From positions 12,187 through 76,186 of the forward strand of contig CAZETG010000001.1 of the NCBI GenBank assembly GCA_964514875.1: a stretch of DNA of 64,000 nt. The letters are read 5' to 3'. Both the position numbers and the translations under genes were made by a program. Positions within the stretch are counted from its first letter, which is position 1. The number at the start of each line of letters is the position of its first letter. The notes under the pieces are model-generated. The model saw only the letters and a list, made by a program, of their open reading frames with translations. It did not search any database and had not been told where the DNA came from. This DNA comes from an uncultured Candidatus Saccharibacteria bacterium. Its GTDB lineage: Bacteria > Patescibacteriota > Saccharimonadia > Saccharimonadales > Saccharimonadaceae. Positions 3,121-62,856 of this stretch are shown one piece after another.

Positions 3121-3155
3121 GTGAATGCTACGTACTGTTTCATGTACCCATGTAT

Positions 3156-3365
3156 TACCATTATCCATACCGTACTAGACAGCGGAGGGGGAAGCCTGCC
3201 CAACGAGGGGCATCATAAGATGAGTAAGTGTTTGAACTATGAAAGTCGAGAGCAAAGATGCGTTCAAATGCTGGAGCAATATACGCGCGAGAAGACCAAG
3301 AAGTCGCACTAGTGCCAGTGAATTGACTTAGGTGACCGCCATTATAAATTGCATCGCTCCGCACA
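3156..3365 (-). repeat. PLRCLVR cassette c1 (silent CLec/FISUMP-like C-terminal coding module)
   Basis: On the minus strand: 5' TTTGTGCGGAGCGATG and 3' CCCCTCCGCTGTCTAGTACGGTATGGATAATGGTA. Length 210 nt. Frame reads VRSDAIYNGG..SWSSR..GFPLRCLVR. The TAG is mutated to TAT, so the frame stops at the TAA of GGATAA. Confidence 0.85.
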
Positions 3366-3457: not shown

Positions 3458-3745
3458 ATGGAAGTTAATCAGGAAGTTATTGCTCATCTCGCTGAGCTGT
3501 CAAATTTTGCCTTAACCGCGCAAGAAAGCGAGCACTTGGTCACGGATCTAAATGGTATCATTAATTATATTTCACAACTTGATGAGCTTGACACGAAGGG
3601 AATTGAGCCGACTTATCAAGTTTTTGAAATGGAAAATATTTGGCGCGCGGATGAAATTTTATCGCAAGAAGCTGACCGTGAGCAACTTCTGAGCTTAACT
3701 AAGCAAACTCAAGACCATCAAATTAAAGTGCCAAAAGTGCTCTAG
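3458..3745 (+). CDS. gatC: Asp/Glu-tRNA amidotransferase subunit C
   Basis: 95 aa with the GatC pattern (LAELSNFALT..ESEHL..DLNGIINYISQLDELDTKGIEPT..WRADE), directly upstream of gatA. Confidence 0.85.
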   Translation: MEVNQEVIAHLAELSNFALTAQESEHLVTDLNGIINYISQLDELDTKGIEPTYQVFEMENIWRADEILSQEADREQLLSLTKQTQDHQIKVPKVL

Positions 3746-3753
3746 GAGAAAAC

Positions 3754-5205
3754 ATGAAGATCGCAAGCAAAACCATTAGCGCGGTTTCTCTGGTGCAAGA
3801 AGCTCTGAAAAAAGCGCACAAATTCCAGGAAACGCATCATATTTTTACTTTTTTGAACGATGTCGAGGCGCTCAAAAAAGCCGCCGCTATTGACGAAAAA
3901 ATCAAGCAAGGCGAGCCAGTCGGTAAATTGGCAGGCGTGCCGTATGCCTTGAAAGATAACTTCCTCAGCCCAGAAGGTGAGACGACGGCTTCGGCGCACA
4001 TTCTCGAAGGTTTTATTAGTCCGGTGACGGCGACGGCCGTAAAAAAGCTCGAGGCTGAGGGCGCGATTATGATCGGACGTACAAATATGGATGCCTTTGC
4101 GCACGGTTCGAGTACGGAGAATAGCTATTTTGGCCCGACCAAAAATTCACGCGATCTTGAACGCGTAGCGGGCGGCTCCTCTGGTGGCTCGGCAGTGGCG
4201 GTAGCGCTCGATATTGTGCCGTTTGCGACTGGCACCGATACTGGCGGCTCGATTCGTCAGCCAGCTTCGTTCAACGGAATTTATGGCTTGAAGCCGACTT
4301 ATGGTACGGTTTCTCGCTACGGCGTCGTGGCGATGGCTTCGAGTACGGATTGCGTTGGCTTTTTCGCGCAAGCTCCTGAAGATATTGATTTACTGATGCG
4401 AATTACTGCTGGACAAGATCCGAATGATTTGACGACTCTGCCGGATTATTATGGTAAGGACACGGATAGTTTTGACGACCCAGTCAAGAAAATTGGCATT
4501 ATTAAGGATTTTGATAACGATGCGGTCTCGCCGGCGATTCAGAAAGCTCTGCATGATAAGATTGATGAGCTGAAAGCGAAGGGCCACGAAATTGTCTATC
4601 TCGACATGCCAGCTCTGAAATATGCGCTCGCAGCATATTATATTATTGTTCCAGCTGAAATTGCCAGCAATCTTTCTCGTCATGACGGTATTCGTTATGG
4701 TTTTCGAAGCGAAGATTCTGGTGATCTGAAAAAACTTTACGAAAATACGCGTAACGAAGGTTTTATGCCAGAAAATAAGCGGCGTATTATGATCGGAAAC
4801 TTCGTCTTGTCGTCCGGGTTTTACGATGCGTATTATCTGAAGGCGGCTAAAGCGCGCACATTGATTATTGAAGAATATAATCGCGCCTTTGAGAAGTGTG
4901 ATTTTATCTTGACGCCGGTTAGTCCGAATCCAGCCTTCAAACTTGGCGAAAAAGTCGACGATCCGGTGGCGATGTATCTCGAGGATATGATGTCAGTATC
5001 ATTGAACCTTGCCGGTGTGCCCGGATTAACCATTCCAGCAGGTGAGACCGCAGATGGCATTGCACTCGGCTTACAATTAGTTGGTCCGCGCCGTAGCGAT
5101 GCTGTGTTATTGAAGTTCGCCGCGGAAATGAGCGTAAATATTGATGAAGCAGCAACGGCGAGCATAGAGGATGAAAGTACGGATATCTTTGGAGGTGACG
5201 ATTAA
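3754..5205 (+). CDS. gatA: Asp/Glu-tRNA amidotransferase subunit A
   Basis: Amidase signature GGSSGGSA..GTDTGGSIRQPA; 483 aa. Confidence 0.95.
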   Translation: MKIASKTISAVSLVQEALKKAHKFQETHHIFTFLNDVEALKKAAAIDEKIKQGEPVGKLAGVPYALKDNFLSPEGETTASAHILEGFISPVTATAVKKLEAEGAIMIGRTNMDAFAHGSSTENSYFGPTKNSRDLERVAGGSSGGSAVAVALDIVPFATGTDTGGSIRQPASFNGIYGLKPTYGTVSRYGVVAMASSTDCVGFFAQAPEDIDLLMRITAGQDPNDLTTLPDYYGKDTDSFDDPVKKIGIIKDFDNDAVSPAIQKALHDKIDELKAKGHEIVYLDMPALKYALAAYYIIVPAEIASNLSRHDGIRYGFRSEDSGDLKKLYENTRNEGFMPENKRRIMIGNFVLSSGFYDAYYLKAAKARTLIIEEYNRAFEKCDFILTPVSPNPAFKLGEKVDDPVAMYLEDMMSVSLNLAGVPGLTIPAGETADGIALGLQLVGPRRSDAVLLKFAAEMSVNIDEAATASIEDESTDIFGGDD

Positions 5206-9234: not shown

Positions 9235-11334
9235 ATGGCAAACGAAGTCAAAGACCTAGCAAAGCTCCGCAATATTGGCATTATTGCCCATATTGATGCT
9301 GGTAAAACCACAACGACCGAAGCAATCTTGTATCGCACCGGTCTTAAGCATAAGATTAATCTCGTGAAGGGCGGTGACGGTGGAGCGACGACCGACTGGA
9401 TGGAGCAGGAACGTGAGCGCGGTATTACGATTACTTCTGCCGCCGTTACAGCTTACTGGAAGGGGCACAAGATTAATATTATCGACACTCCAGGCCACAT
9501 CGACTTCACGGCCGAAGTGGAGCGCTCTCTGCGCGTGCTAGATGGTGCGGTGGTAGTCTTTGACGGCAAGATGGGCGTCGAGGCTCAGTCTGAGACGGTT
9601 TGGCGCCAAGCTACCAAGTACGGCGTGCCTCGCATTTGCTTCGTGAATAAGATTAATCAAATCGGTGGCGATTTTTACAAGTCGCTCGATAGCATTCACA
9701 AGCGCCTATCTAAGAACGCTGTAGCAATTCACCTGCCGATTGGCTTCGAGAAGGACGTCTGCGGCGTCGTCGATCTCGTCGATATGAAGGCATATACCTA
9801 TGATGATTATGCCGACCATGAGCTGAAGGTTGGTGAAATTCCGGCTGATATGCTCGAGAAGGCTAAGAACGCTCGGTCATTGCTGATTGAAGAGGCGGTG
9901 CAGGCTGATGAAACCCTGATGGACAAGTTCTTTAATCAAGGCGAAGAGGCGATCACGGAAGTCGAGCTCAAGGCAGCGCTTCGTAAGCGTATCCTCGATG
10001 GAGATTTCTATCTCGTCACCGGCGGCGATGGTCGTGGTGTGATAGTCGAAAAGGTTTTGGATCTTGTGGCAGACTACTTGCCAAGCCCATTGGATCGCGA
10101 TCAGGGCCAGACGGTCGGCGTCGATCCGAAGACTGGCAACCAAGTTGTCCGTAAAGCGAGTGATAGTGAGCCGCTGACGGCGCTTGCCTTTAAGATTGCG
10201 ACGGATCCATTTGTGGGTAAATTGATTTTTATTCGCGTCTATGCTGGCAAGATGACTACCGGTAGTACTGTTCTGAATGCGACAACTGGTGATAAGGAGC
10301 GCATCGGCCGTATTGTACGTATGTTTGCCGATAAGCGCGAAGAAATTTCCGAAATTACGGCTGGGGATATTGCGGCAGTAGTTGGGCTGAAAGACGTAAC
10401 GACTGGGACAACAATCTGTGATGTTGCTCATCCGATTTTGCTCGAGGATATTACCTTCCCAGATCCTCCGGTTTCGATTGCTGTTGAGCCGAAGACGAAG
10501 AGCGATCAAGAAAAAATGGGACTTGGCTTGAGTAAGCTCGCCGAAGAAGATCCGACCTTAAAGATTCACACTGATGAGGAAACCGGCCAGACAATTATTT
10601 CTGGTATGGGCGAGCTACATCTGGAGATTGCGATTGATCGTTTGCAAAAAGAGCATGGTGTCGAGGCGAATACCGGCGCTCCGCAGGTCGCCTATCGCGA
10701 AACTATTCGCGGCACCGCTGAAGCCCAAGGTAAACATATTAAGCAGTCTGGTGGTCGCGGTCAGTACGGCGATGTCTGGGTGAAATTCGAGCCCAATGAG
10801 CCGGGTAAGGGCTTCGAATTTATTGATCAAATTAAGGGTGGCGTTGTACCTCAGGAATATCGTAAGCCAGTTCAGCAGGGTATCGAAGAGACTTTGAATG
10901 GCGGCGTCATTGCCGGCTATCCGGTGGTTGATGTTAAGGCTACGCTTTATGATGGTAGTTACCACGATGTCGACTCTTCCGAACTAGCCTTTAAACTCGC
11001 CGGTAGCTTAGCTACTCGTGAGGGCATCAAGCGCGCCCAGCCAGTCTTACTTGAGCCGATCATGCGTCTTGAAATTACCACACCAGAAGAGTTTATGGGC
11101 GACGTCATCGGCGATGTCAATTCTCGCCGTGGTCGCATCGAAAGCATGGAAGATCTCACTGGCGGCGCGAAGCTGATCAAGGCATTTGCTCCGCTTGCAA
11201 ACCTCTTCGGTTATACTTCCGATCTTCGCTCAATGTCGCAAGGTCGCGCTGTCAGCTCAATGGAGATTAATGGCTACGAGGAAGTACCGCCTAACGTTGC
11301 TCAAGAAATCATCGAAAAACGAAATACGAAGTAG
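9235..11334 (+). CDS. fusA: Elongation factor G
   Basis: [12 protein letters not shown] and DTPGHIDF GTPase motifs, with EF-G domains II-V; 699 aa. Confidence 0.97.
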
Positions 11335-12799: not shown

Positions 12800-14036
12800 T
12801 ATGATTGTGCCGGTTTATAATTCCGCACCGCATTTGGGCTATTGCCTAAATTCGATTCTGAATCAAACGTATCAAAATTTGGAAATCATCCTGATCGACG
12901 ACGGCTCGATTGATAATTCTCTGCAAATTTGCCAAAACTATGCCGCTCTTGACGCGCGAGTTCAAGTAATTGCAACGCCGCATTACGGCGTGAGCAGTGC
13001 GCGTAACACTGGTCTTGACGCCGCGCATGGCGATTATATAGTTTTTATCGATTCGGACGATGTCGCGCGCCCTGATCTTGTTACACATCTTGTGCAACTT
13101 ATCGGGACTTATAATGCCGATTTTGCGGTCTGCGGCTATCAAATTATTGCCCTCGATGCCACTGATCGGGTTGAGCGCAATATTACGGTCACCTCGCAAG
13201 AGTTAGGTGAGGAATGCGTGCTGGCACGGGAGAATTTCTTTGCACATCTTGCATCGATTCTTGTGCGAACAAGTTATTTACAAGGTCCAGTTTGCAAGAT
13301 TTTCAAACGTGATCTCATCGAACAGTATCACTTGCGTTTTCTGTGGTCGATTTCTCTGGGTGAAGATTTTTGTTTTAACATGGATTATTTTCAGTACATG
13401 AGCGGCCCGGCGGTCATTTCTAGTCGATGTTGTTATTATTACTTGCAGGCTTTGCCAGATGCGCTATCTCGGCGTTATCGCCCGGATCGGTTTGAAAATG
13501 AATTATTTCTTTTGCAACGTTTCCAACAGTTATTGTTGAGTAATTCAACGCCGTCGCCAGCGGAAGAAGCTGCATTGGCCGAATATTCTCTGTCAAAAAT
13601 CATGCAAAGCCTTTATCATCTTACCGATCCGCGTTGCGATTTAAGCGTATCGGCAAAGAAAGCCGCAATCGCGAATATTCTTAATCATTCTTTTGTGCGT
13701 CAAGCTTACGATCGTACCGAATCGATTCCTACGGTTTACGCCTGGATCCATGAGTGCATGGAATTTTGCGACGCGCAAAAGGCTTATGAATTTCTCTTTG
13801 AAAATCGCCCGCTTCATGCTGATAATCCGTTTGCACCAGTGCGTATTTCTGTGTATCCGCGCCCAGGCTTACTGAATCGTGTTCTCGTGAGCGTTTGCGA
13901 TGCCTTACTTAATATTCATCATTTTAGAGCAATCGCTCGATTTCGGCGCAGTCTCAGTTCTTCCGGCGTTAAGACCACTTCACGAAAGGTCATCTCGAAG
14001 ACTGTTTCCAAGGTCTCCGCAAAATTACTATCTTGA
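12765..14036 (+). CDS. Family 2 glycosyltransferase with extended C-terminal domain
   Basis: MIVPVYNS..DDGSIDNS..DSDD motifs. Overlaps the upstream GT2 gene; an alternative start at 12801 is possible. Confidence 0.75.
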   Translation: MEKSATSEQLISMIVPVYNSAPHLGYCLNSILNQTYQNLEIILIDDGSIDNSLQICQNYAALDARVQVIATPHYGVSSARNTGLDAAHGDYIVFIDSDDVARPDLVTHLVQLIGTYNADFAVCGYQIIALDATDRVERNITVTSQELGEECVLARENFFAHLASILVRTSYLQGPVCKIFKRDLIEQYHLRFLWSISLGEDFCFNMDYFQYMSGPAVISSRCCYYYLQALPDALSRRYRPDRFENELFLLQRFQQLLLSNSTPSPAEEAALAEYSLSKIMQSLYHLTDPRCDLSVSAKKAAIANILNHSFVRQAYDRTESIPTVYAWIHECMEFCDAQKAYEFLFENRPLHADNPFAPVRISVYPRPGLLNRVLVSVCDALLNIHHFRAIARFRRSLSSSGVKTTSRKVISKTVSKVSAKLLS

Positions 14037-14057
14037 CCGGCATGCGCCATTTCTTCC

Positions 14058-14261
14058 TACTTTTATCCCTGCCGTACTAGACAGCGGAGGGGAATAGCGT
14101 TAATTCTTCCGCTGGGTTGAGACACGATGACATTTGTATGAAACTGAAATCTATAAGAGTTACTAACCTTTATCACGAAATCTGAAGTCGCCGTAGTGTA
14201 ATAGCCATATAAACCGGCGCCATTAAGCGCGCTCGTTGTCCAAAGCCAGCCGCTCCGCACG
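14058..14261 (-). repeat. PLRCLVR cassette c2
   Basis: 5' TTTTCGTGCGGAGCGG and 3' CCCCTCCGCTGTCTAGTACGGCAGGGATAAAAGTA. Length 204 nt. TAG is mutated to CAG, so the frame stops at the TAA of GGATAA. It begins about 10 nt after the histidine kinase stop. This is the most diverged copy. Confidence 0.8.
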
Positions 14262-14271
14262 AAAAGCAATC

Positions 14272-15384
14272 TTACTCCATCCCGATCACATCAAAGAATT
14301 TATGATTTGCAAAAGTAATAGTAACGGTTGTTCCAGTGTCGACTTGTGACTGAATTGCAATCTGATGTCCAAGCTTTTCGCACAGGGAATGAGCAAGATA
14401 TAGTCCCATCCCGGTCGAGCGACCGGCTTCGGTCTGGCGGCCATTCTTACCAGTAAAGGATTTTTCGAACACGCGAGGCAAATCTTCAGCGGCAATTCCG
14501 ATACCGTTATCGCTAATACTTAATTCCACGGCGTCGCCTACCTGCTTTGCCCGCACGATAATCTGCGCACTGTGATACTTGATACTATTGGTGATAATCT
14601 GATTCAAGATAAATTCTAGCCATTTTACGTCCGTATAAACTTTTTGATCAAGCTGGCCGACCTGAAAATCAATCTGCTTTGCCTGCAGAATCTCGCGATT
14701 TCGCACTGCTACCACTTGTACAACTTGCGCGAGCTGTACTTGCTTGATAATATAATCACGCTCGGCATTCTTGGCGCGCACAAAATACAGAACCTGTTCG
14801 ATATAATTATCAAGTCGCTTCAGCTGCTCAACTGCGCGTGGATCTTTCGTGATTAAGCTGAGTGTTGCTAAAGGTGCTTTCGTCTCATGAATCCATAGCT
14901 CGATATATTCGCGAAAATCTTGTGTCTTGCTAGCATACTGCTGAATATTTTCCGCGGCGGATTTGTCTACACGCGTCAAAACTTCCTGCAAAATCCTACC
15001 ATCAAAAAAGTTCGGCCGCCCGATCGTCTCCAAGACTAAATACGCCTGATCCATTTGTGATAAATTGTCCAGTAGATGATAATAAAATCTTCGGCGCCGC
15101 CCATATTCCACCAGAAAAGTCACCGCGCCCGTCACACTCATGATAATTATAATCAAAATACTCGCCTCAAGATCTATCTTCAAGGCCGCTAAAAATAATA
15201 TCAAGATAATCATCGCCACCGCAAAACCCAAAATCTGTAAAGCATGATCGCTCACGAAAGTCGGAAAGCTGCACAAGCGCAACAAATATTTCCGTTGGTT
15301 GCTTTTATCACTCCGTCGTGTCGCTTCGTTGTCGATGGTCGTCTCAATTTCGCTATTTTTCGCGCGTTGCCTAGTCGATTTCAT
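14272..15384 (-). CDS. Sensor histidine kinase, intramembrane-sensing (BceS-like)
   Basis: Two TM helices with a very short loop. H-box ELWIHETKAPL, N-box NSIKY, and G-boxes DNGIGI and GMGLYL. Confidence 0.85.
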   Translation of the reverse strand: MKSTRQRAKNSEIETTIDNEATRRSDKSNQRKYLLRLCSFPTFVSDHALQILGFAVAMIILILFLAALKIDLEASILIIIIMSVTGAVTFLVEYGRRRRFYYHLLDNLSQMDQAYLVLETIGRPNFFDGRILQEVLTRVDKSAAENIQQYASKTQDFREYIELWIHETKAPLATLSLITKDPRAVEQLKRLDNYIEQVLYFVRAKNAERDYIIKQVQLAQVVQVVAVRNREILQAKQIDFQVGQLDQKVYTDVKWLEFILNQIITNSIKYHSAQIIVRAKQVGDAVELSISDNGIGIAAEDLPRVFEKSFTGKNGRQTEAGRSTGMGLYLAHSLCEKLGHQIAIQSQVDTGTTVTITFANHKFFDVIGME

Positions 15385-16073
15385 GTCAAAATGTATCCTA
15401 ATCCTTTGCGCGTCTCAATCAATTCGCCGGCGCCCAGCGCCTGTAACTTATTCCGCAGGCGACTCACGTTCACCGTCAAGGCATTATCATTAATATATTC
15501 TTGATTGTTCCACAGATCCGTCATCAGCGCGTCGCGCGTCACGATTTCACCTCGATGCTCAAACAAATGACGCAAGATAATCATTTCATTTTTCGTCAAA
15601 AGCACCCGATTTCTCCCATTACCGCCATTATGATCAGCTATTGTCGTAATCACTCCACGCGCCAAATCGATATTCAGTCCGTGCAGATTCGTCACTTGTG
15701 CTGGCGCTTCGATACGCCGTAAAACCGCTGCAACTCTCAGCAGTAAAACGCTTGGGCTATATGGCTTTGTAATATAATCATCTGCACCGTAGCTCATCGA
15801 CAAAACTTCATCAGCTTCCGTATCGCTACTCGTTACCATGATTACTGGTACTTCCGAATTTTTCCGTAAGACCTGCAGAAGTTGCGTACCGCTTTGATCG
15901 GGCAGATTCAAATCAAGCAGAATTAAATCCGGATGCGACGTCTGAATTTGTTGCAAAAATGCCGACTCGCTAAAAATATCAAGCACTATTGTCTCATAAT
16001 TAGCGCTCGCGAGCAACGCGCTCAGGGCTTGGCGCATTGTTGCATCATCTTCTACGATTAAAATCTTTCTCAT
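15381..16073 (-). CDS. OmpR-family response regulator (BceR-like)
   Basis: ILIVEDD and LILLDLNLPD receiver motifs, with a winged-helix C-terminus ..RKGLGYIL. ATGA overlap with the kinase gene. Confidence 0.9.
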   Translation of the reverse strand: MRKILIVEDDATMRQALSALLASANYETIVLDIFSESAFLQQIQTSHPDLILLDLNLPDQSGTQLLQVLRKNSEVPVIMVTSSDTEADEVLSMSYGADDYITKPYSPSVLLLRVAAVLRRIEAPAQVTNLHGLNIDLARGVITTIADHNGGNGRNRVLLTKNEMIILRHLFEHRGEIVTRDALMTDLWNNQEYINDNALTVNVSRLRNKLQALGAGELIETRKGLGYILT

Positions 16074-17055: not shown

Positions 17056-17265
17056 CGTGCGGAGCGATGGTGTCTGGAATGATGGTCGTGTTAGACCGAA
17101 CGCGGGCACTAACGCAGTCTTCTGGTCATCTCGCGCGAACTCTACTGCGGACTTTCAGGGCGCCTTCTACCTCTACTTTAATGCTTCAGGCGTCTACCCG
17201 TCCTACCTCGGTAGCCGCTATCGCGGTTATCCCCTCCGCTGTCTAGTACGGTAGGGATAATGGTA
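17056..17265 (+). repeat. PLRCLVR cassette c3
   Basis: 5' CGTGCGGAGCGATGG and 3' CCCCTCCGCTGTCTAGTACGGTAGGGATAATGGTATGAATATGG. Length 210 nt. Frame reads VRSDGVWNDGRVRPNAGTNAVFWSSR..GYPLRCLVR. Confidence 0.9.
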
Positions 17266-17394
17266 TGAATATGGTTACTACGGCGCATTCACTCCGCTCG
17301 TGGCATTATAATCTTACAAAAATGTAAGTAAAATGTAACTTTATGCAAACGACAAATTGAAAAGTTTTATCTATAATATCTTTAAGGAGAAACA

Positions 17395-33601: not shown

Positions 33602-33689
33602 CAAGATCCTAGAGACCACGCCATAGGAGAAGAGACGGCATGCAGCCAGTGAGTCTCATATAGTTGTACATACGTCTATTCTATCTTCT

Positions 33690-33899
33690 TACCATTATCC
33701 CTATCGTACTAGACAGCGGAGGGGAATATTCATCCAACGCTGATCAATACTAATAGGATAAACATTTGTAGCATTAAAATAAAGGCTGGACGCACTTTGG
33801 AAATCTGCGTTAGGTAACGCACGCGACGACCAAAAAACCGCATGTGTACCGGTATTTTGACCAATCCACCCCACTTCCCAAACCGCATCGCCCCGCACT
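33690..33899 (-). repeat. PLRCLVR cassette c4
   Basis: 5' AGTGCGGGGCGATG (one A>G change) and 3' CCCCTCCGCTGTCTAGTACGATAGGGATAATGGTAAGAAG. Length 210 nt. Frame reads VRGDAVWEVGWIGQNTGTHAVFWSSR..IPLRCLVR. Confidence 0.9.
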
Positions 33900-41133: not shown

Positions 41134-42585
41134 ATGACTACCCTCAACGACTATCGCGACGAAAGATTGCGCAAACTTTCCGAAATTAAAGCACGTAGTA
41201 TTAATCCTTATCCTGCTAAATCCCATCGTAATACAAAGATTTCAACCATTCTGAACCATTTTGACGAAAAAGACGGTCAGGAAGTCTGCGTAGCGGGGCG
41301 CATTATCGCGATTCGTAGTTTTGGCAAAATTGCTTTCGTCAAGATTCGTGATTACTTTGGTGAAATTCAGATCTTCATGCAAAAAAGCGATGAAGTTTTA
41401 CCCGATCAATTTGGAATCAAAGATTTGAAATTACTTGATACCGGCGATTTTATCGAAGCTAAGGGACAAGTTGGTCGATCCAGTACGGGTGAAATTTCCG
41501 TTTTTGCAAATACAGTAAGATTATTAACGAAGGCGTTGCGCCCTCTACCGGGCTACGACGGCTTAACCAACAAAGAAGAACGCTATCGCCGTCGTTACGT
41601 CGATATGAATGTCAATCCAGAAGTGCGTGCACGTCTTGTACGTCGCTCAAAATTTTGGCAAGCAACACGCGATTTCATGAATCGACATGGTTTTATTGAA
41701 ATTAATGTACCGGTACTTGAGCTTACGACTGGTGGTGCTGATGCTAATCCGTTTGTGACACATATGGACGCGCTGGATACAGATTATTATCTGCGCATCT
41801 CGCATGAATTACCGCTCAAGCGTTTGCTCGGCGGCGGATTCGAAAAAGTTTATGATATTGGCCCGCGTTTTCGTAATGAAGGTGTCGATGACGAACATTT
41901 ACCAGAGCATATCGCCTTTGAAAGCTATGCCGCTTACGAAAATTACGAAGATGGCATGGATTTATATGAAGAAATGATCAAATACGTTGCCAAGGAGACT
42001 TGGGGTACGCTACAATTTGAAGTTAGTGGTTTTAAAGTCAATTTAGATTGTGAATGGCCGCGCATTAAGTATGCTGATTTGCTGAAAGAAAAGTTTGACA
42101 TTAATGTTTTTCAGCTTGATCGCGATAAAGCTATTGGTATTTTGAAACAAGGCAACGTGCAAAAGCCTGAAGAAATGAATGATGCACGCCTGCTTGATAA
42201 TTTATGGAAACTCATTCGCAAAACTTCTGCTGGTCCATACTGGCTAATTGAAGAGCCGCTAAGTTTAAGCCCACTTGCTAAGGTTGTCGAAGATAATCCA
42301 CTCGTTACGCAGCGATTCCATCCGATTATTGCCGGTACCGAAATGGGTAATGGCTACAGCGAGCTCAATGATCCGCTCGACCAGCTCGCGCGTTTTCGGG
42401 AGCAACAAGCTATGCGCGACGCTGGAGACGACGAAGCGCAAATGCTCGACATGGATTTTGTCGAAATGTTGGAGTATGGTATGCCACCTGCCTGCGGCTG
42501 GGGCAATAGCGAGCGCAATTTCTGGCTGCTCGAAGGCGTCAGTGGCCGTGAAGCTGTCCCATTCCCGATTATTCGTGCAAAATAA
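41134..42585 (+). CDS. lysS: Lysine--tRNA ligase (class II)
   Basis: OB-fold N-terminus plus class II motifs (..GPRFRNEG.., ..GWGNSERNF..). Confidence 0.95.
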   Translation: MTTLNDYRDERLRKLSEIKARSINPYPAKSHRNTKISTILNHFDEKDGQEVCVAGRIIAIRSFGKIAFVKIRDYFGEIQIFMQKSDEVLPDQFGIKDLKLLDTGDFIEAKGQVGRSSTGEISVFANTVRLLTKALRPLPGYDGLTNKEERYRRRYVDMNVNPEVRARLVRRSKFWQATRDFMNRHGFIEINVPVLELTTGGADANPFVTHMDALDTDYYLRISHELPLKRLLGGGFEKVYDIGPRFRNEGVDDEHLPEHIAFESYAAYENYEDGMDLYEEMIKYVAKETWGTLQFEVSGFKVNLDCEWPRIKYADLLKEKFDINVFQLDRDKAIGILKQGNVQKPEEMNDARLLDNLWKLIRKTSAGPYWLIEEPLSLSPLAKVVEDNPLVTQRFHPIIAGTEMGNGYSELNDPLDQLARFREQQAMRDAGDDEAQMLDMDFVEMLEYGMPPACGWGNSERNFWLLEGVSGREAVPFPIIRAK

Positions 42586-42613
42586 ACGATTTTACTCCGC
42601 TAGTTTTAAAGCG

Positions 42614-42622
42614 TGCTACAAT
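42614..42622 (+). promoter_or_regulatory. Extended -10 (TGCTACAAT) 9 nt upstream of the ldh ATG
   Basis: Sequence is gcgTGCTACAATaggattaatATG. Confidence 0.55.
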
Positions 42623-42631
42623 AGGATTAAT

Positions 42632-43546
42632 ATGAGTGGAAAAATAATGATTGTGGGCACGGGCAATGTTGGATCGAGTATTGCTTATGCATTATTAAAT
42701 CAACGTACGCCAGTCAAAGAACTGGTTTTGACCGATATTAACCGCGAAGATGCCGAAGGCGAAGTCATGGATCTGGCGGACGCACTGGCGGTCGCGCCGA
42801 GTTACATGCGTCTCAAAGCTGGCAATTATTCCGACGCCAAAGATTGTGATATCTGCATTATCACCGCCGGCGTCAATCAAAAAGACGGTGAATCGCGCAC
42901 TAATCTTGTACAAAAAAACGCCAATATTATGCGAGATATTATCTCGAGCGTAATGGAATCAGGCTTTGACGGTATTTTTCTCATCGTGTCGAATCCAGTC
43001 GATACGCTAAGCTTGTTAGCTTGGAATTATTCTCAGCTTCCGCCCGAACGCGTAATTGGTAGCGGTACAGTACTTGATTCCGCACGTTTACGTTATCGAT
43101 TATCCGAAAAACTTGGCGTTCATCCGAAGTCCGTCCACGCCTATCAAGTCGGTGAGCATGGCGATAGCGAGTTCGCGCTCTGGTCTACAGCCAATTTAGG
43201 CGGCCAGCGCATTATTAGTATGCTGCCACGCGCTGAGCTAATGAAAATTGAATCTGACGTCCGCGACAAAGCTTATCAGATCATCAAAAAGAAAGGTGCG
43301 ACATATTACGGTATCGGCTCTTGCGTTGTTCAGATAATTAACTCCATTTTGAATGACGAGCGCCGCGTGCTGACGGTTTCTAGCTACGATGACAACACTG
43401 GCGTTTACTATGGATTTCCAGCCGTAGTCGGTCGAGAAGGCATCATTCGTCGCCTCGAGTACAAAATGACCGAAAAAGAGGGGATTAAATTACAACAATC
43501 CGTCAACGTCATCAAAGCCACCATTAAAGAGGTGCGGGATGTTTAG
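42632..43546 (+). CDS. ldh: L-lactate dehydrogenase
   Basis: IVGTGNVGSS Rossmann motif and GEHGDS. The ORF-track start at 42275 is an in-frame run overlapping lysS, so the start is trimmed to MSGKIMIVG. Confidence 0.9.
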   Translation: MSGKIMIVGTGNVGSSIAYALLNQRTPVKELVLTDINREDAEGEVMDLADALAVAPSYMRLKAGNYSDAKDCDICIITAGVNQKDGESRTNLVQKNANIMRDIISSVMESGFDGIFLIVSNPVDTLSLLAWNYSQLPPERVIGSGTVLDSARLRYRLSEKLGVHPKSVHAYQVGEHGDSEFALWSTANLGGQRIISMLPRAELMKIESDVRDKAYQIIKKKGATYYGIGSCVVQIINSILNDERRVLTVSSYDDNTGVYYGFPAVVGREGIIRRLEYKMTEKEGIKLQQSVNVIKATIKEVRDV

Positions 43547-49466: not shown

Positions 49467-49495
49467 TTGACTTTTTAGATAAAGTATGCTACAAT
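49467..49495 (+). promoter_or_regulatory. Consensus promoter TTGACT-17-TGcTACAAT
   Basis: TTGACTttttagataaagtaTGCTACAAT, about 115 nt upstream of the small membrane-protein gene. Confidence 0.65.
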
Positions 49496-49611
49496 AGTCA
49501 GAGGATAGTGTATGAATGAAGCCAATTCTGACCAAATTATCCACCGTCCAACCTCACACCGTTCTTTCATAGCCTGACCACCACATTCTGAAAACAAAAG
49601 GAGTTGTCTGT

Positions 49612-49854
49612 ATGTTCCTGTTTCTTTTCAACGTCATAGGCGTTATCGCCGAGTTCATCATCTATATTTACTGTAGCAAGTTTCGGCAGGACAAGCGCAG
49701 CGGGCCTCAAAAGTTCGGGCTCAAGATCGCGCAATATGTGATCTACACTGTACTTATTATGATCCCGCCATACCTTTTCTATCCCAACGAGACAGCCGGT
49801 GTTCCACTCGTTATTGGCGCCATATTCTTCTTGGTATTGTCGCACAGAGGGTAA
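49612..49854 (+). CDS. Small hypothetical membrane protein (80 aa, 2-3 TM helices)
   Basis: SD AAGGAG 8 nt upstream, hydrophobic segments, and its own promoter and terminator. Confidence 0.5.
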   Translation: MFLFLFNVIGVIAEFIIYIYCSKFRQDKRSGPQKFGLKIAQYVIYTVLIMIPPYLFYPNETAGVPLVIGAIFFLVLSHRG

Positions 49855-49889
49855 ATTCTCACAAGACACGAGGTCAGGTTATCATTTTT

Positions 49890-49925
49890 GCCGCCACCAA
49901 TCCGTGTGGCGGTTTCCCTTTTCTT
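49890..49925 (+). terminator. Rho-independent terminator
   Basis: CCGCCAC-caatccgt-GTGGCGG followed by TTTCCCTTTTCTT. Confidence 0.6.
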
Positions 49926-50109: not shown

Positions 50110-50322
50110 CGTGCGGAGCGGTTGTATGCATTATCTCCCCGGATCAGCCTTCCCCGGAATAGACGCAAGAATTTGGTCATCCCGTGCAATACTCACCGGT
50201 GAAGACTACGAAAATGCAAGCTATGATTTCTTCTTCAATCTCCTTAGCCTAGACTCACGACATTACAATCCACGCAATATGGCCTTTCCCCTCCGCTGTC
50301 TAGTACGGTAGGGATAATAGTA
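50110..50322 (+). repeat. PLRCLVR cassette c5
   Basis: 5' CGTGCGGAGCGG and 3' CCCCTCCGCTGTCTAGTACGGTAGGGATAATAGTAGGAAGG. Length 213 nt. Frame reads VRSGCMHYLPG..IWSSR..AFPLRCLVR. Confidence 0.9.
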
Positions 50323-50366
50323 GGAAGGAAGCAAACAAAAACACATTGAACGTAAGCGTTATTCTT

Positions 50367-50579
50367 CGTGCGGAGCGGAACCATCCTATACACCGGTAAA
50401 TCCAACGGTTACACTGGCGAGCAGGCCTTCTTTTCGTCGTCCCGTGTTGGTACCGACGCCAGTTTTCAGTACAGTATTAACTTATTCTTTAACGCTTCAA
50501 CTATTCACTCGTCTAATCCCGGCAATCTCCGGTATTGGGGCTACCCCCTCCGCTGTCTAGTACGGTAGGGATAATGGTA
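50367..50579 (+). repeat. PLRCLVR cassette c6 (tandem with c5, 44-nt spacer)
   Basis: 5' TTCGTGCGGAGCGG and 3' CCCCTCCGCTGTCTAGTACGGTAGGGATAATGGTAGGAAC. Length 213 nt. Frame reads VRSGTILYTGK..FFSSSR..GYPLRCLVR. Confidence 0.9.
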
Positions 50580-50732
50580 GGAACCATAAACATCATTGAT
50601 CGTCATTCAAGATTTAAACTGGTCAAGCTTGCTATTTTACTGGCATTTTGATAAACTAGAGTAGTTGTAAGGGGTAAGGTCGATTAGCCGCTGTTGCTAC
50701 CCTGCGCAACGCAGTCTTAAATAGGAGAATTA

Positions 50733-50882: not shown

Positions 50883-50977
50883 TTCTCAAAAACTAAACAC
50901 CCCAGCCGTTTAAGGTTTTTTGAAATATAAACGTCAAGAAGTCAGGTACGTAGGATATCCCGTTTACCGCACCTTCA

Positions 50978-51187
50978 TACCATTATCCCTACCGTACTAG
51001 ACAGCGGAGGGGAAAACCGTACCAACGGCCAGCGTCATTAAGAGATGGCGTAACAGACACACCATTGAAACGTAGATAGAAGCCAGTAGAAACGCTATCA
51101 TTTGGAGTGGTACGAACCGACCAATAGCAACCATCATTACCAGGCCACCGAGTTCTGCTATCGTAATGAGTATGTCCGCTCCGCACG
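50978..51187 (-). repeat. PLRCLVR cassette c7
   Basis: 5' TTGCGTGCGGAGCGG and 3' CCCCTCCGCTGTCTAGTACGGTAGGGATAATGGTATGAAGG. Length 210 nt. Frame reads VRSGHTHYDSR..YWSVR..GFPLRCLVR. Confidence 0.9.
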
Positions 51188-51327: not shown

Positions 51328-51540
51328 CGTGCGGAGCGGATTTAGTCACGACGAAGGAAAATTGTATGCTCTTGGCGATCAAGGTTACTTATGGTCATCT
51401 AAAACGGGTATAGGCGACACTCTGCAGAGTAACTGGTATTTTATATTCAATTCGGAGACTACCTATACTTCGATTCTAGGTCAGACAAGCCGCTATTACG
51501 GTTTTTCCCTCCGCTGTCTAGTACGGTAGGGATAATGGTA
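51328..51540 (+). repeat. PLRCLVR cassette c8
   Basis: 5' CTCGTGCGGAGCGG and 3' TCCCTCCGCTGTCTAGTACGGTAGGGATAATGGTATGAATAG. Length 213 nt. Frame reads VRSGFSHDEGK..LWSSK..GFSLRCLVR. Confidence 0.9.
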
Positions 51541-51577
51541 TGAATAGAAGATTTAATGCTCAATCAAAGAAATAGCG

Positions 51578-55358: not shown

Positions 55359-55390
55359 AGAAAAATAAGAGTACCTTCTCAACTCTTCGC

Positions 55391-55603
55391 TACCATTATC
55401 CCTACCGTACTAGACAGCGGAGGGGGAAACCGAGCCAGCGTTGATCCCGAAAGGACGGATTTACAGTACCTGAATCAGGAAAATCAAGCCCGAAAGCATC
55501 ATGAAAGCCTTCATCATAGACCGTACGTGAAGACCAAGCGACGATAATAGCGCCAGCATTCGGACTAACACGGCCAACATCCCACACTGAAGCGCTCCGC
55601 ACG
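55391..55603 (-). repeat. PLRCLVR cassette c9
   Basis: 5' TTTTCGTGCGGAGCGC and 3' CCCCTCCGCTGTCTAGTACGGTAGGGATAATGGTAGCGAAG. Length 213 nt. Frame reads VRSASVWDVGRVSPNAGAIIVAWSSR..GFPLRCLVR. Confidence 0.9.
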
Positions 55604-58315: not shown

Positions 58316-58408
58316 CGGTCATTTTTATAGCCAGAGTCTAGACTAACAGAGATACGTAACCTCCTAAAATTGACCGTTGGTCATTTATATATTACCCATC
58401 CATATTCA

Positions 58409-58621
58409 TACCATTATCCCTACCGTACTAGACAGCGGAGGGGAAAACCGCTAAAGCGATATGTATTGTAATCAGACGGATTAAGTGCTGTAGCACTCAA
58501 AACAAGGCGATATGCGAACATAGCACTGACCACCGGCCCGCTTCGCGATGACCAGACCGCAGTCTCGCGACCAGTCTCTTGACCTACATGGCCGTCGATT
58601 CTAATATATCCGCTCCGCACG
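58409..58621 (-). repeat. PLRCLVR cassette c10
   Basis: 5' GTTCGTGCGGAGCGG and 3' CCCCTCCGCTGTCTAGTACGGTAGGGATAATGGTATGAATATGG. Length 213 nt. Frame reads VRSGYIRIDGH..VWSSR..GFPLRCLVR. Confidence 0.9.
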
Positions 58622-60132: not shown

Positions 60133-60160
60133 AGACCCAGACTTAACTCTGGGTCTTTTC
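60133..60160 (+). terminator. Rho-independent terminator of the GH13 gene
   Basis: AGACCCAGA-cttaac-TCTGGGTCT followed by TTTCTT. It abuts the 3' end of cassette c11. Confidence 0.7.
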
Positions 60161-60161
60161 T

Positions 60162-60368
60162 TACCATTATCCCTACCGTACTAGACAGCGGAGGGAAATG
60201 CCGAAGTAGCGGTCACTATTGATAGACGGATTAACTCCTGAAGCAGTAAAACCGAGGTTGAAACTACCTCGCAAGAGAGTATTGGAATAAGCAAGAGAAG
60301 ACCAGCTGAGTTCATCAATACCGGACCATAAAATATGAGCGTCAGGGTATATACGCCCGCTCCGCACG
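60162..60368 (-). repeat. PLRCLVR cassette c11
   Basis: 5' GTTCGTGCGGAGCGG and 3' TCCCTCCGCTGTCTAGTACGGTAGGGATAATGGTAAGAAAAG. Length 207 nt. Frame reads VRSGRIYPDAH..SWSSL..GISLRCLVR. Confidence 0.9.
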
Positions 60369-62563: not shown

Positions 62564-62776
62564 CGTGCGGAGCGGAAGCGCTAATCGTGACGGTTGTGTT
62601 GGTGACTCTGGTCGAGATGGTCATTATCCATCTGATCGAGCAACGGTGATTGAGACGACATTTCCTAGTAGATATGGTATGATGGTCGGAAAATCCAACA
62701 TTTATAGCTCATATTACTGGGCCGACCGTTGGTTCGGTATTCCCCTCCGCTGTCTAGTACGGTAGGGATAATGGTG
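62564..62776 (+). repeat. PLRCLVR cassette c12
   Basis: Begins 3 nt after the ychF TAA, in the same frame. 5' TTCGTGCGGAGCGG and 3' CCCCTCCGCTGTCTAGTACGGTAGGGATAATGGTG. Length 213 nt. Frame reads VRSGSANRDG..GIPLRCLVR. Confidence 0.9.
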
Positions 62777-62856
62777 TGGATAGATCGATCAAACAATACG
62801 GCAAAAGGCCGCCATTTCTGACGACCTTTCATCTACCTCTTCGGTGTAATTCTGGA

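Follow-up and report, generated by a model that had tools for sequence, protein, structure and literature searches.

Gene-less lectin-segment cassettes with concertedly evolving ends in a Saccharibacteria core chromosome, possibly stand-alone repeats of the diversity-generating retroelement type

The 64,000-nt stretch analysed here (the window) is core Saccharibacteria chromosome that carries, between its genes, twelve copies of a short open-frame cassette (c1 to c12), which are the subject of this study. The genes include rpoC, gatCAB, fusA, two UvrD-type helicase genes, rpsB-tsf-frr-uppS, several tRNA synthetase genes, murJ, ruvABC, radA, rnhB, rplS and ychF. When the 48 larger open reading frames (ORFs) were scanned, 44 were of housekeeping type and four had no Pfam match; homologues of the encoded amylase carry the annotation Candidatus Saccharibacteria. 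The cassettes occupy gaps between these core genes on both strands, either singly (c1-c4, c9-c12) or in a cluster (c5-c8, 50.1-51.5 kb). We found 12 exact occurrences of the 17-mer CTCCGCTGTCTAGTACG, five on the + strand and seven on the - strand, with no mismatches (mean in shuffles 0.01), in agreement with the original prediction that this word is the same in all 12 copies. A nucleotide profile built from the copies recovered exactly 12 units in the window and no degenerate or decayed ones. Units are 206, 209, 212 or 215 nt long, with indels of whole codons only. They start with GTGCGG[A/G]GCG, usually preceded by TTC, and end with CCCCTCCGCTGTCTAGTACGGTAGGGATAATGGTA. Every unit holds a single open frame, running from V-R-S-[GDA] to P-L-R-C-L-V-R-stop; GTG opens all copies and TAG or a back-up TAA closes them.

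In c3 (17057-17268, + strand) the open frame GTG CGG AGC ... CTA GTA CGG TAG encodes VRSDGVWNDG...GYPLRCLVR and a stop. Its frozen 5' arm, GTGCGGAGCG (17057-17066), contains the V-R-S codons. The variable interior (17067-17230) keeps the protein framework G..WSSR..F.L.F..S.V.PS..R..G. The frozen 3' arm (17231-17265) takes in the codons for P-L-R-C-L-V-R and the stop TAG (17252-17254) and extends a further 11 nt. A short direct repeat flanks the unit, V-R being written GTG CGG at the start and GTA CGG at the end. The motifs CTAGTACG and TAGGGATAA in the 3' arms (17245-17262 in c3, and in all other copies) may resemble two conserved motifs of 23S rRNA, one from the sarcin-ricin loop region and one from around the I-SceI site TAGGGATAACAGGGTAAT; this likeness is probably coincidence.

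The cassette ends had been predicted to be frozen at the nucleotide level while the interiors evolve as coding sequence, and both the entropy and the codon-pair contrast bear this out. Third-position entropy was 0 at V1, R2, S3 and P64-V69. In the interior it was 1.33 bits at G17 and 1.58 bits at R59, both invariant residues, and 1.63 bits at the nearly invariant S24. Among pairs with the same amino acid, synonymous codon choice differed in 498 of 805 interior comparisons (62%) against 11 of 629 at the ends (1.7%). The ends were 96-98% identical; mean pairwise interior identity at codon positions 1/2/3 was 0.43/0.48/0.34, and the window interiors were ~42% identical to one another. The 35-nt 3' block, which starts CCCCTCCGC directly after the last variable codon and has a GC-rich beginning, was identical or 1-3 nt different across the 12 window copies. 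We recovered the substitutions previously listed for this block (TCC in c8 and c11, CGA in c4, TAT in c1, CAG in c2 and a single post-stop change in each of c5 and c12), with the correction that c2 has two post-stop changes, not one. The interior examples were also as described: c3 and c4 spell AVFWSSRA with different bases at six of eight third positions, and c3 and c9 (GRV[R/S]PNAG) are separated by three synonymous changes and one replacement. End substitutions in the window cassettes rose with the 'age' of the interior (Spearman 0.59, p 0.04).

The open frame, the codon-multiple indels and an excess of synonymous over nonsynonymous differences point to selection on the interior at the protein level, as had been proposed. 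The cassette frame had no stop in 783 codons, and the other five frames had 25-61 each. The proportion of synonymous differences (pS, 0.75, saturated) exceeded that of nonsynonymous ones (pN, 0.53) in 64 of 66 pairs, and omega (dN/dS) was ~0.2-0.4 for the closest pairs rather than about 1. Intact frames with codon-multiple indels only were found in all 42 complete units extracted from the window and from a related metagenome-assembled genome (MAG) described below. Codons of the NNY type made up 70% of the interior, compared with 60% in ordinary genes, and K, E and Q were depleted. Different cassettes had mosaic segments in common, with 19 pairs scoring >=14 against a null mean of 9.6.

The peptide resembles the end of a lectin-like domain. 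Pfam PF09603 (Fib_succ_major) matched at profile positions 130-186 of 187 (E 0.039) and TIGR02145 at positions 128-174 of 176 (E 0.045), both under the curated cut-off. A profile of the 12 peptides matched 1,694 proteins in a set of 1.84 billion representatives. One group of matches comprised large surface proteins with complete FISUMP-like domains (...CWM.QNL...Y[YN]W...CP.GWRLP...) and cassette sequence at the end, their tails reading ...P[LM]YF[VT]R[SG]G...WSS...G.S[VI]RC.. (for example P0024, P0154 and the genes of the relative L017). The other comprised numerous short 'proteins', each made up of one cassette or of several in tandem. Judged by these matches, the cassette represents the last ~63 codons, or C-terminal third, of a FISUMP domain, cut at one place in all lineages. 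A PDB sequence search with the cassette profile gave chance-level matches only. AlphaFold modelled the cassette alone as one hairpin plus a strand (predicted local distance difference test, pLDDT, 71; predicted template modelling score, pTM, 0.48), and Foldseek found no match of this model in the PDB at E <= 0.001. The modelled peptide does not look like an autonomous domain, an indication that is not decisive. Degenerate PLRCLVR patterns gave nothing or chance matches in Joint Genome Institute (JGI) metagenomes and viral contigs, and tblastn of the cassette against phage records gave no match.

The cassettes are not parts of recognisable genes. A Shine-Dalgarno (SD)-like motif was found before 1 of 37 cassettes, against 28 of 48 genes (p 2e-8). 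An in-frame stop lies 1-97 codons upstream of all 37, longer open stretches being read-through from a neighbouring cassette or spacer, and none of the 37 extends a long upstream ORF or a FISUMP N-terminal part. No N-terminal FISUMP part of the CPxGWRLP type was present in the window or the MAG loci, and promoter-like sites were not enriched near cassettes. Among the matches listed by a word-indexed search of 5.8 billion proteins, there was no long or FISUMP protein ending in PLRCLVR. There was none among the 150 best profile matches listed from the 1.84 billion representatives either, and with a chimeric query the 120 best full-length homologues listed all had ends like ...[SPA][VIL]RC[LVI]A[RK], none being PLRCLVR. 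No expression locus with the same arms in frame was found in the window or in related loci. In the relative L017 a pair of full-length FISUMP genes flanks two cassettes, and the codons of these genes differ from those of the cassettes at both ends. As a separate observation on expression signals, window genes at 3458, 23350, 26582, 39412, 48469 and 52390 have a TATAAT-like box 5-9 nt upstream of the ATG and no SD-like motif, suggesting that leaderless mRNAs are common in this genome.

We used an exact scan with the 17-mer, covering one genome per species, to look for the cassettes elsewhere. The only other species-representative genome with the 17-mer inside a cassette was the Saccharibacteria MAG CAZSPU01; the remaining matches were at chance level. 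The MAG loci that we fetched hold ~40 copies, many of them in tandem. Their arms, TTCGTGCGTAGTG and CCTCTCCGCTGCCTAGTACGGTAGGGATAATGGTAATGGA, differ from the window arms by four synonymous changes (CGG>CGT, AGC>AGT, CCC>CCT, TGT>TGC), the end codons being GTG CGT AGT and CCT CTC CGC TGC in the MAG and GTG CGG AGC and CCC CTC CGC TGT in the window. The MAG variants are close to fixed (29-30 of 30 copies at the 5' sites, 28-30 of 32 at the 3' sites), all 12 window copies have the window variants, and a third genome (L031) has a mixed arm haplotype. Because the synonymous variants are genome-specific, the arms must be kept alike by copying within each genome and are not simply immutable. The arms evolve in concert. 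This agrees with the earlier proposal that the ends are held at the DNA level and not by the peptide, and of the constraints then suggested it is continual end homogenisation that matches the data. The interiors diverge equally within and between genomes: among 37 aligned copies, no pair exceeds 69% identity, and the highest value between genomes is 66%. In L020, a relative that shares the gene order, the syntenic region had no cassette. In tight tandem arrays of the MAG (L012 9750-9792, L004 5556-5570, L032 5510-5521) the 3' arm runs straight into the next 5' arm. The tails of the MAG arrays contain a TAATGG motif in two or three copies, a variation that suggests slippage.

Fib_succ_major/DUF1566 domains form the CLec2 class of variable regions of diversity-generating retroelements (DGRs), with constant ends and a variable centre, in which the initiation of mutagenic homing (IMH) sequence encodes the 3' constant residues (PMC5758913; PMC4159848). 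A genome of another, related candidate-phyla lineage (L016, GCA_018263615.1), reached via the multi-unit protein match P0019, contains such repeats. It has a stand-alone Asn-rich template repeat at 4366-4554, VRGGNVNLNTGSLRNAGNN...NRFNGFSVRCIAQ and stop (VRGGNVNLNTGSLRNAGNNSNYWSATTYPNATNAYNLNFNSTNVNPSNYNNRFNGFSVRCIAQ and stop). One variable repeat ends a FISUMP gene and has 43 nt of 3' arm in common with the template, and six further variable repeats form a free-standing tandem array. Mismatches to the template fell on template adenines in 25 of 31, 23 of 26, 16 of 19, 20 of 26 and 15 of 21 cases in five repeats (binomial p 3e-5 to 8e-11); for the other three aligned repeats the counts were 25/40, 19/25 and 23/66. 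The unit boundaries in L016, V-R-G-G ... G-F-S-V-R-C-x-x-x-stop plus ~20 nt, are those of the window cassettes, and the window 3' arm has the same extent as the arm common to template and variable repeat in L016. By these sequence features L016 carries a bona fide DGR with window-type unit boundaries. Its array is also like the cassettes in being detached from the FISUMP gene and in having tandem and dispersed units. The L016 units are, however, 75-80% mutually identical and differ from the nearby template almost only at adenines, unlike the window interiors.

Some further features of L016 were noted. The end of one unit overlaps the start of the next in GGTTTCTCGGTGCGCGGCGGG (10130-10320), a pattern suggesting that arrays form in tandem through resolution of a cDNA 5' end in the 3' arm of an existing unit. 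Gene calling gave many ORFs of 30-100 aa on one strand, and one nucleotide is deleted from the variable repeat at 7406-7225. An alternative genetic code was considered and rejected, codes 4 and 25 hardly lengthening the ORFs. By its sequence, the region may be either a poor assembly or decaying DNA around an active-looking DGR.

A template-like unit was also found in the clade of the window cassettes itself. P0023, which belongs to the same PLRCLV clade, has an Asn-rich unit, ...FQNSFNLNFNASGVNPSNNNNRFWGFPLRCLV (VRSGHTHYDGRTEWSGINGYNWSSRAYTNAGFQNSFNLNFNASGVNPSNNNNRFWGFPLRCLV), that then departs from the cassette arm, and this departure resembles what the IMH* of a template would show. We compared C-terminal halves with P0023 at the protein level, counting changes at 9 template-Asn and 21 other positions. 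Three MAG copies had changes at 7/9, 8/9 and 8/9 Asn positions against 0/21, 1/21 and 3/21 others (L012_10046, L012_9314 and L012_3228, respectively). In the window, c3 had 8/9 against 4/21 (p 6e-4), c9 had 8/9 against 5/21 and c5 had 6/9 against 13/21. Pooling the 12 window units gave 89 of 108 Asn and 103 of 251 other positions changed (p 1e-13). Set against P0023, the cassette C-terminal halves form a continuum from 'fresh' to 'old'. The four freshest MAG copies have 79-96% third-position identity in this half, with most differences at positions one and two of NNY codons; their likeness is lost toward the 5' end, and their N-terminal halves are far more different. This polarity fits a 3'-primed cDNA with a variable 5' resolution point.

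We therefore favour, with a probability of about one half, a reading in which the cassettes are stand-alone repeats of the DGR type, their ends being a 5' homology arm and an IMH-like 3' arm that are recopied from a master template. Each cassette would be a free-standing repeat unit of a DGR family, that is, the ligand-binding FISUMP/CLec2 segment that DGRs rewrite. The 5' arm (TTC GTG CGG AGC GG), placed in c3 at 17057-17066 with its usual TTC before it, would be the upstream limit of template-repeat homology. The 3' arm (CCC CTC CGC TGT CTA GTA CGG TAG GGATAATGGTA) would lie at the IMH position, covering the last codons, the stop and the sequence beyond (PMC5758913). The template of this clade would carry the arms GTGCGGAGCG ... 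CCCCTCCGCTGT and diverge in an IMH*-like way after RCLV. The system would randomise the interior at Asn (AAY) codons, and drift under protein-level constraint would then lead from 'fresh' to 'old' copies. Recopying from one master, by retrohoming or an equivalent templated conversion, would make the arms uniform within a genome and concerted between genomes. The four fixed differences all fall within the part that this reading takes to be template-derived, where a single change in the master could reach all repeats. A DGR origin of the arms would thus explain the long 3' arm with its GC-rich start and its run of at least 11 nt past the stop, the genome-specific arms, and the coincidence of variable positions with template Asn codons. 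An RT (reverse transcriptase) and a template would presumably exist elsewhere in this genome, retrohoming would homogenise the arms, and the gene-less copies would most likely be a reservoir for, or by-products of, the rewriting of FISUMP adhesin-like C-termini.

The likeness to known CLec2 DGR repeats (DUF1566/Fib_succ_major, as in Legionella LdtA and the Patescibacteria DGR clade) extends to a C-terminal C-type-lectin-like segment ending at the stop, to constant 5' and 3' ends around a variable centre, to a 3' constant arm that, like an IMH, starts GC-rich and runs past the stop, and to variable positions that coincide with the Asn codons of the template-like unit. Targets remote from the RT are known (PMC5758913, PMC8144416, PMC10907252). 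Unlike these repeats, the cassettes lack the N-terminal two thirds of the domain, a start signal and an SD motif, occur in very large numbers (12 in 64 kb, with a still higher density in the MAG loci) and are mostly diverged at all codon positions, not at adenine-derived ones alone.

Several observations weigh against the DGR interpretation. Unlike a typical DGR, the window has no RT, Avd or Asn-rich template among its 48 larger scanned ORFs, and none was recognised in ~54 kb of MAG loci when precomputed Pfam calls and the ORF list were inspected. P0023 is known as a protein from a 1,961-nt contig not tied to a genome. The Asn bias could arise in part from templates that place Asn at naturally hypervariable positions, and adenine content is only mildly lowered in the cassettes, a weak DGR footprint. 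As all codon positions differ and third positions are saturated, most interiors have long not been overwritten from one template. The 5' arm is nevertheless uniform on old interiors, where full-length retrohoming would rewrite the interior too; short conversion tracts at the 3' end could account for the upkeep of the 3' arm, though not of the 5' arm. A canonical DGR diversifies expressed genes, and these units are gene-less. Finally, the 42 of 42 intact frames make the copies appear selected, whether because they are translated or because an expressed FISUMP gene uses them as donors or templates, and adenine mutagenesis of AAY codons cannot by itself guarantee intact frames once ordinary mutations saturate.

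The main rival, which we regard as unlikely although it may be combined with the DGR model, is that the cassettes act as silent donors from which an expressed FISUMP adhesin has its C-terminus replaced through recombination, by segmental gene conversion in the service of antigenic or host-range variation. The frozen ends would then be homology anchors, homogenised because every exchange passes through the expression site. Start-less and SD-less partial genes, on both strands and both dispersed and in tandem, would be expected of such donors, as would frames held by purifying selection and the mosaic segments (19 pairs >=14); L017 has its two cassettes between full-length FISUMP genes, and the window encodes RuvABC, RadA, an AddA-like enzyme and RmuC. 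Anaplasma msp2/msp3, Neisseria pilS, Borrelia vls and Mycoplasma genitalium MgPar likewise use promoter-less partial copies with conserved flanks, a hypervariable centre and mosaicism, and a small genome can carry such copies on both of its strands. The conserved 3' sequence of pilS (the Sma/Cla repeat) can extend past the stop. Those systems have an expression site with matching arms, however, whereas a FISUMP N-terminal part joined to a PLRCLVR end was not found in the protein searches above, and the full-length neighbours in L017 use other codons at both ends. The 5' anchor would be just 11-20 nt, much shorter than in those systems. The donor model also leaves the Asn-position-specific differences and the Asn-rich template-like unit unexplained, a signature that points to an RNA-templated route. 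Slightly less likely again, in our view, is a two-tier system in which DGR hypermutation rewrites about a hundred promoter-less cassettes (a copy number extrapolated from 12 per 64 kb), with whole or partial cassettes then moving into adhesin genes. The reduced genome could in that case maintain the cassettes under selection, and they could also serve as alternative templates.

We consider it improbable that the cassettes are non-autonomous mobile or cassette elements, of the kind of miniature inverted-repeat transposable elements (MITEs), repetitive extragenic palindromic (REP) sequences or integron cassettes, with ends that are transposase or recombinase sites and an ORF that is a passenger. 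Their sites between housekeeping genes, the cassette-free syntenic region of L020, the short inverted complementarity of the two end blocks (which in L014 makes a hairpin of 10 bp at the junction) and tight arrays that abut the 3' arm on the next 5' arm, like repeat-spacer layouts, would all suit such an element. Yet a best interior identity of 69% among 37 aligned copies gives no sign of recent transposition and rules out recent duplication of the MITE kind; no target-site duplication was seen in the flanks as read, neither a recombinase nor a transposase is encoded in the window, the inverted repeat is not kept from lineage to lineage, and a passenger ORF would not stay open with codon-multiple indels in 42 of 42 copies. 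Chromosomal integron cassettes (attC arrays, and the integrase-less attC clusters termed CALINs) are similar in having variable ORFs between species-uniform repeats and in occurring as clusters or solitary copies away from an integrase. They differ from the cassettes here, whose interiors are all mutually homologous and whose orientations are mixed, and the window has neither a conserved attC-like palindrome nor an integrase. We are equally doubtful that the units are independent small genes of 63-66 codons starting at GTG, with end codons frozen by expression signals in the start and stop context or the mRNA 3' end. All copies do have a GTG start and a TAG or back-up TAA end, the interior is under purifying selection, public annotation calls several of them as 56-107-aa proteins, and 42% of the window genes likewise have no SD-like motif, some of them looking leaderless. 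The rarity of SD-like motifs (1/37 against 28/48), the absence of a leaderless-type -10 box at the right distance, the lack of promoter-like enrichment and the modelled character of the peptide as one third of a larger fold argue against it, and expression signals would leave the 11 post-stop nt and the genome-specific synonymous variants unexplained. That pairing of the two ends in RNA or single-stranded DNA is what is conserved, a helix put forward in the original prediction, has next to no credence with us. In this genome 7-8 of 9 positions can pair. Six of the nine pairs are forced, however, because CGN AGY GGN, the R-S-G codons, is the reverse complement of CCN CTN CGN, the P-L-R codons, whatever the third bases. 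Position 4 is broken in the MAG, L017, L015 and L014 and pairs in the window and L031 only, position 7 never pairs and position 1 fails in L014 alone; checking covariation revealed no compensatory change in the MAG, L014, L015 or L017, so the helix did not hold up. The folding energy of the 3' block lies within the shuffle range (z = -1.9 in the window, ~0 in the MAG), the predicted hairpin is not conserved, and Rfam gave no match in the window at gathering thresholds. A 3' hairpin or terminator was likewise rejected, being unstable, not conserved and without a T-run.

Saccharibacteria are obligate epibionts whose host range depends on surface adhesins. With the ligand-binding third of a lectin domain kept in a dense library under selection, spread among the core genes of a very small genome, they would appear to invest heavily in varying host recognition. 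DGRs, CLec2 targets and remote targets are known already (PMC5758913, PMC8144416, PMC10907252). In the literature searched we found no description of gene-less variable-repeat cassettes at this density in a Saccharibacteria core genome, with mostly ancient interiors and concertedly evolving arms. If the DGR interpretation is true, variable repeats can persist in large numbers outside target genes, many of them long not fully rewritten and with arms still in register with a master copy, and comparing genomes gives a direct view of how the arms evolve in concert. The two-tier arrangement, if true, would pair a template-driven mutator with a cassette library, a combination undescribed for DGRs or for bacterial antigenic variation. 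For annotation the cassettes call for caution: they are called as dozens of unrelated 'hypothetical' proteins of 56-107 aa, and assemblies are broken by them.

The remaining window cassettes are placed as follows. On the - strand, c1 (3153-3364) lies between rpoC and gatC and has its stop moved by two codons (TAT GGA TAA), and c2 (14055-14260) begins 12 nt past a histidine-kinase stop and has the most decayed ends (three changes) on an old interior. Between the addA-like helicase-nuclease gene and rpsB lies c4 (33687-33898, -). The cluster is formed by c5 (50111-50325, +) and its tandem partner c6 (50368-50582, +), start-to-start 257 nt, by c7 (50975-51186, -), which is convergent with c6, divergent from c8 and near P0023 in its N-terminal half (VRSGHTHYD.RT.W), and by c8 (51329-51543, +). 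Then follow c9 (55388-55602, -), between ruvC and a small ORF upstream of ruvA and publicly annotated as the 61-aa protein P0042; c10 (58406-58620, -), between the RNase HII gene and the alpha-amylase gene; c11 (60159-60367, -), downstream of the alpha-amylase gene and publicly annotated as P0003; and c12 (62565-62779, +), which begins 3 nt past the ychF stop codon. Just upstream of ychF, the relative L017 has at 13623-15392 a 589-aa large serine recombinase (Resolvase, Recombinase and Zn ribbon) with several unannotated ORFs, probably an integrated element, which is not present in the window.

Two minor observations concern other parts of the window. Between bacA and c5 (49467-49913), ~400 nt are enclosed by a good sigma-70-like promoter (TTGACT-17-TACAAT, with TG upstream) and a hairpin that, with its T-run, resembles a terminator. 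This stretch has only short overlapping ORFs (49612-49854 on the + strand, 49567-49869 on the - strand) and no Rfam match, and could be a small gene or an unclassified RNA. The listed lactate/malate dehydrogenase ORF (42275-43546, with a TTG start at 42275) overlaps the lysyl/asparaginyl-type tRNA synthetase gene (41134-42585) by ~300 nt; as its Pfam match starts at residue 123, the true start is probably far downstream of 42275.

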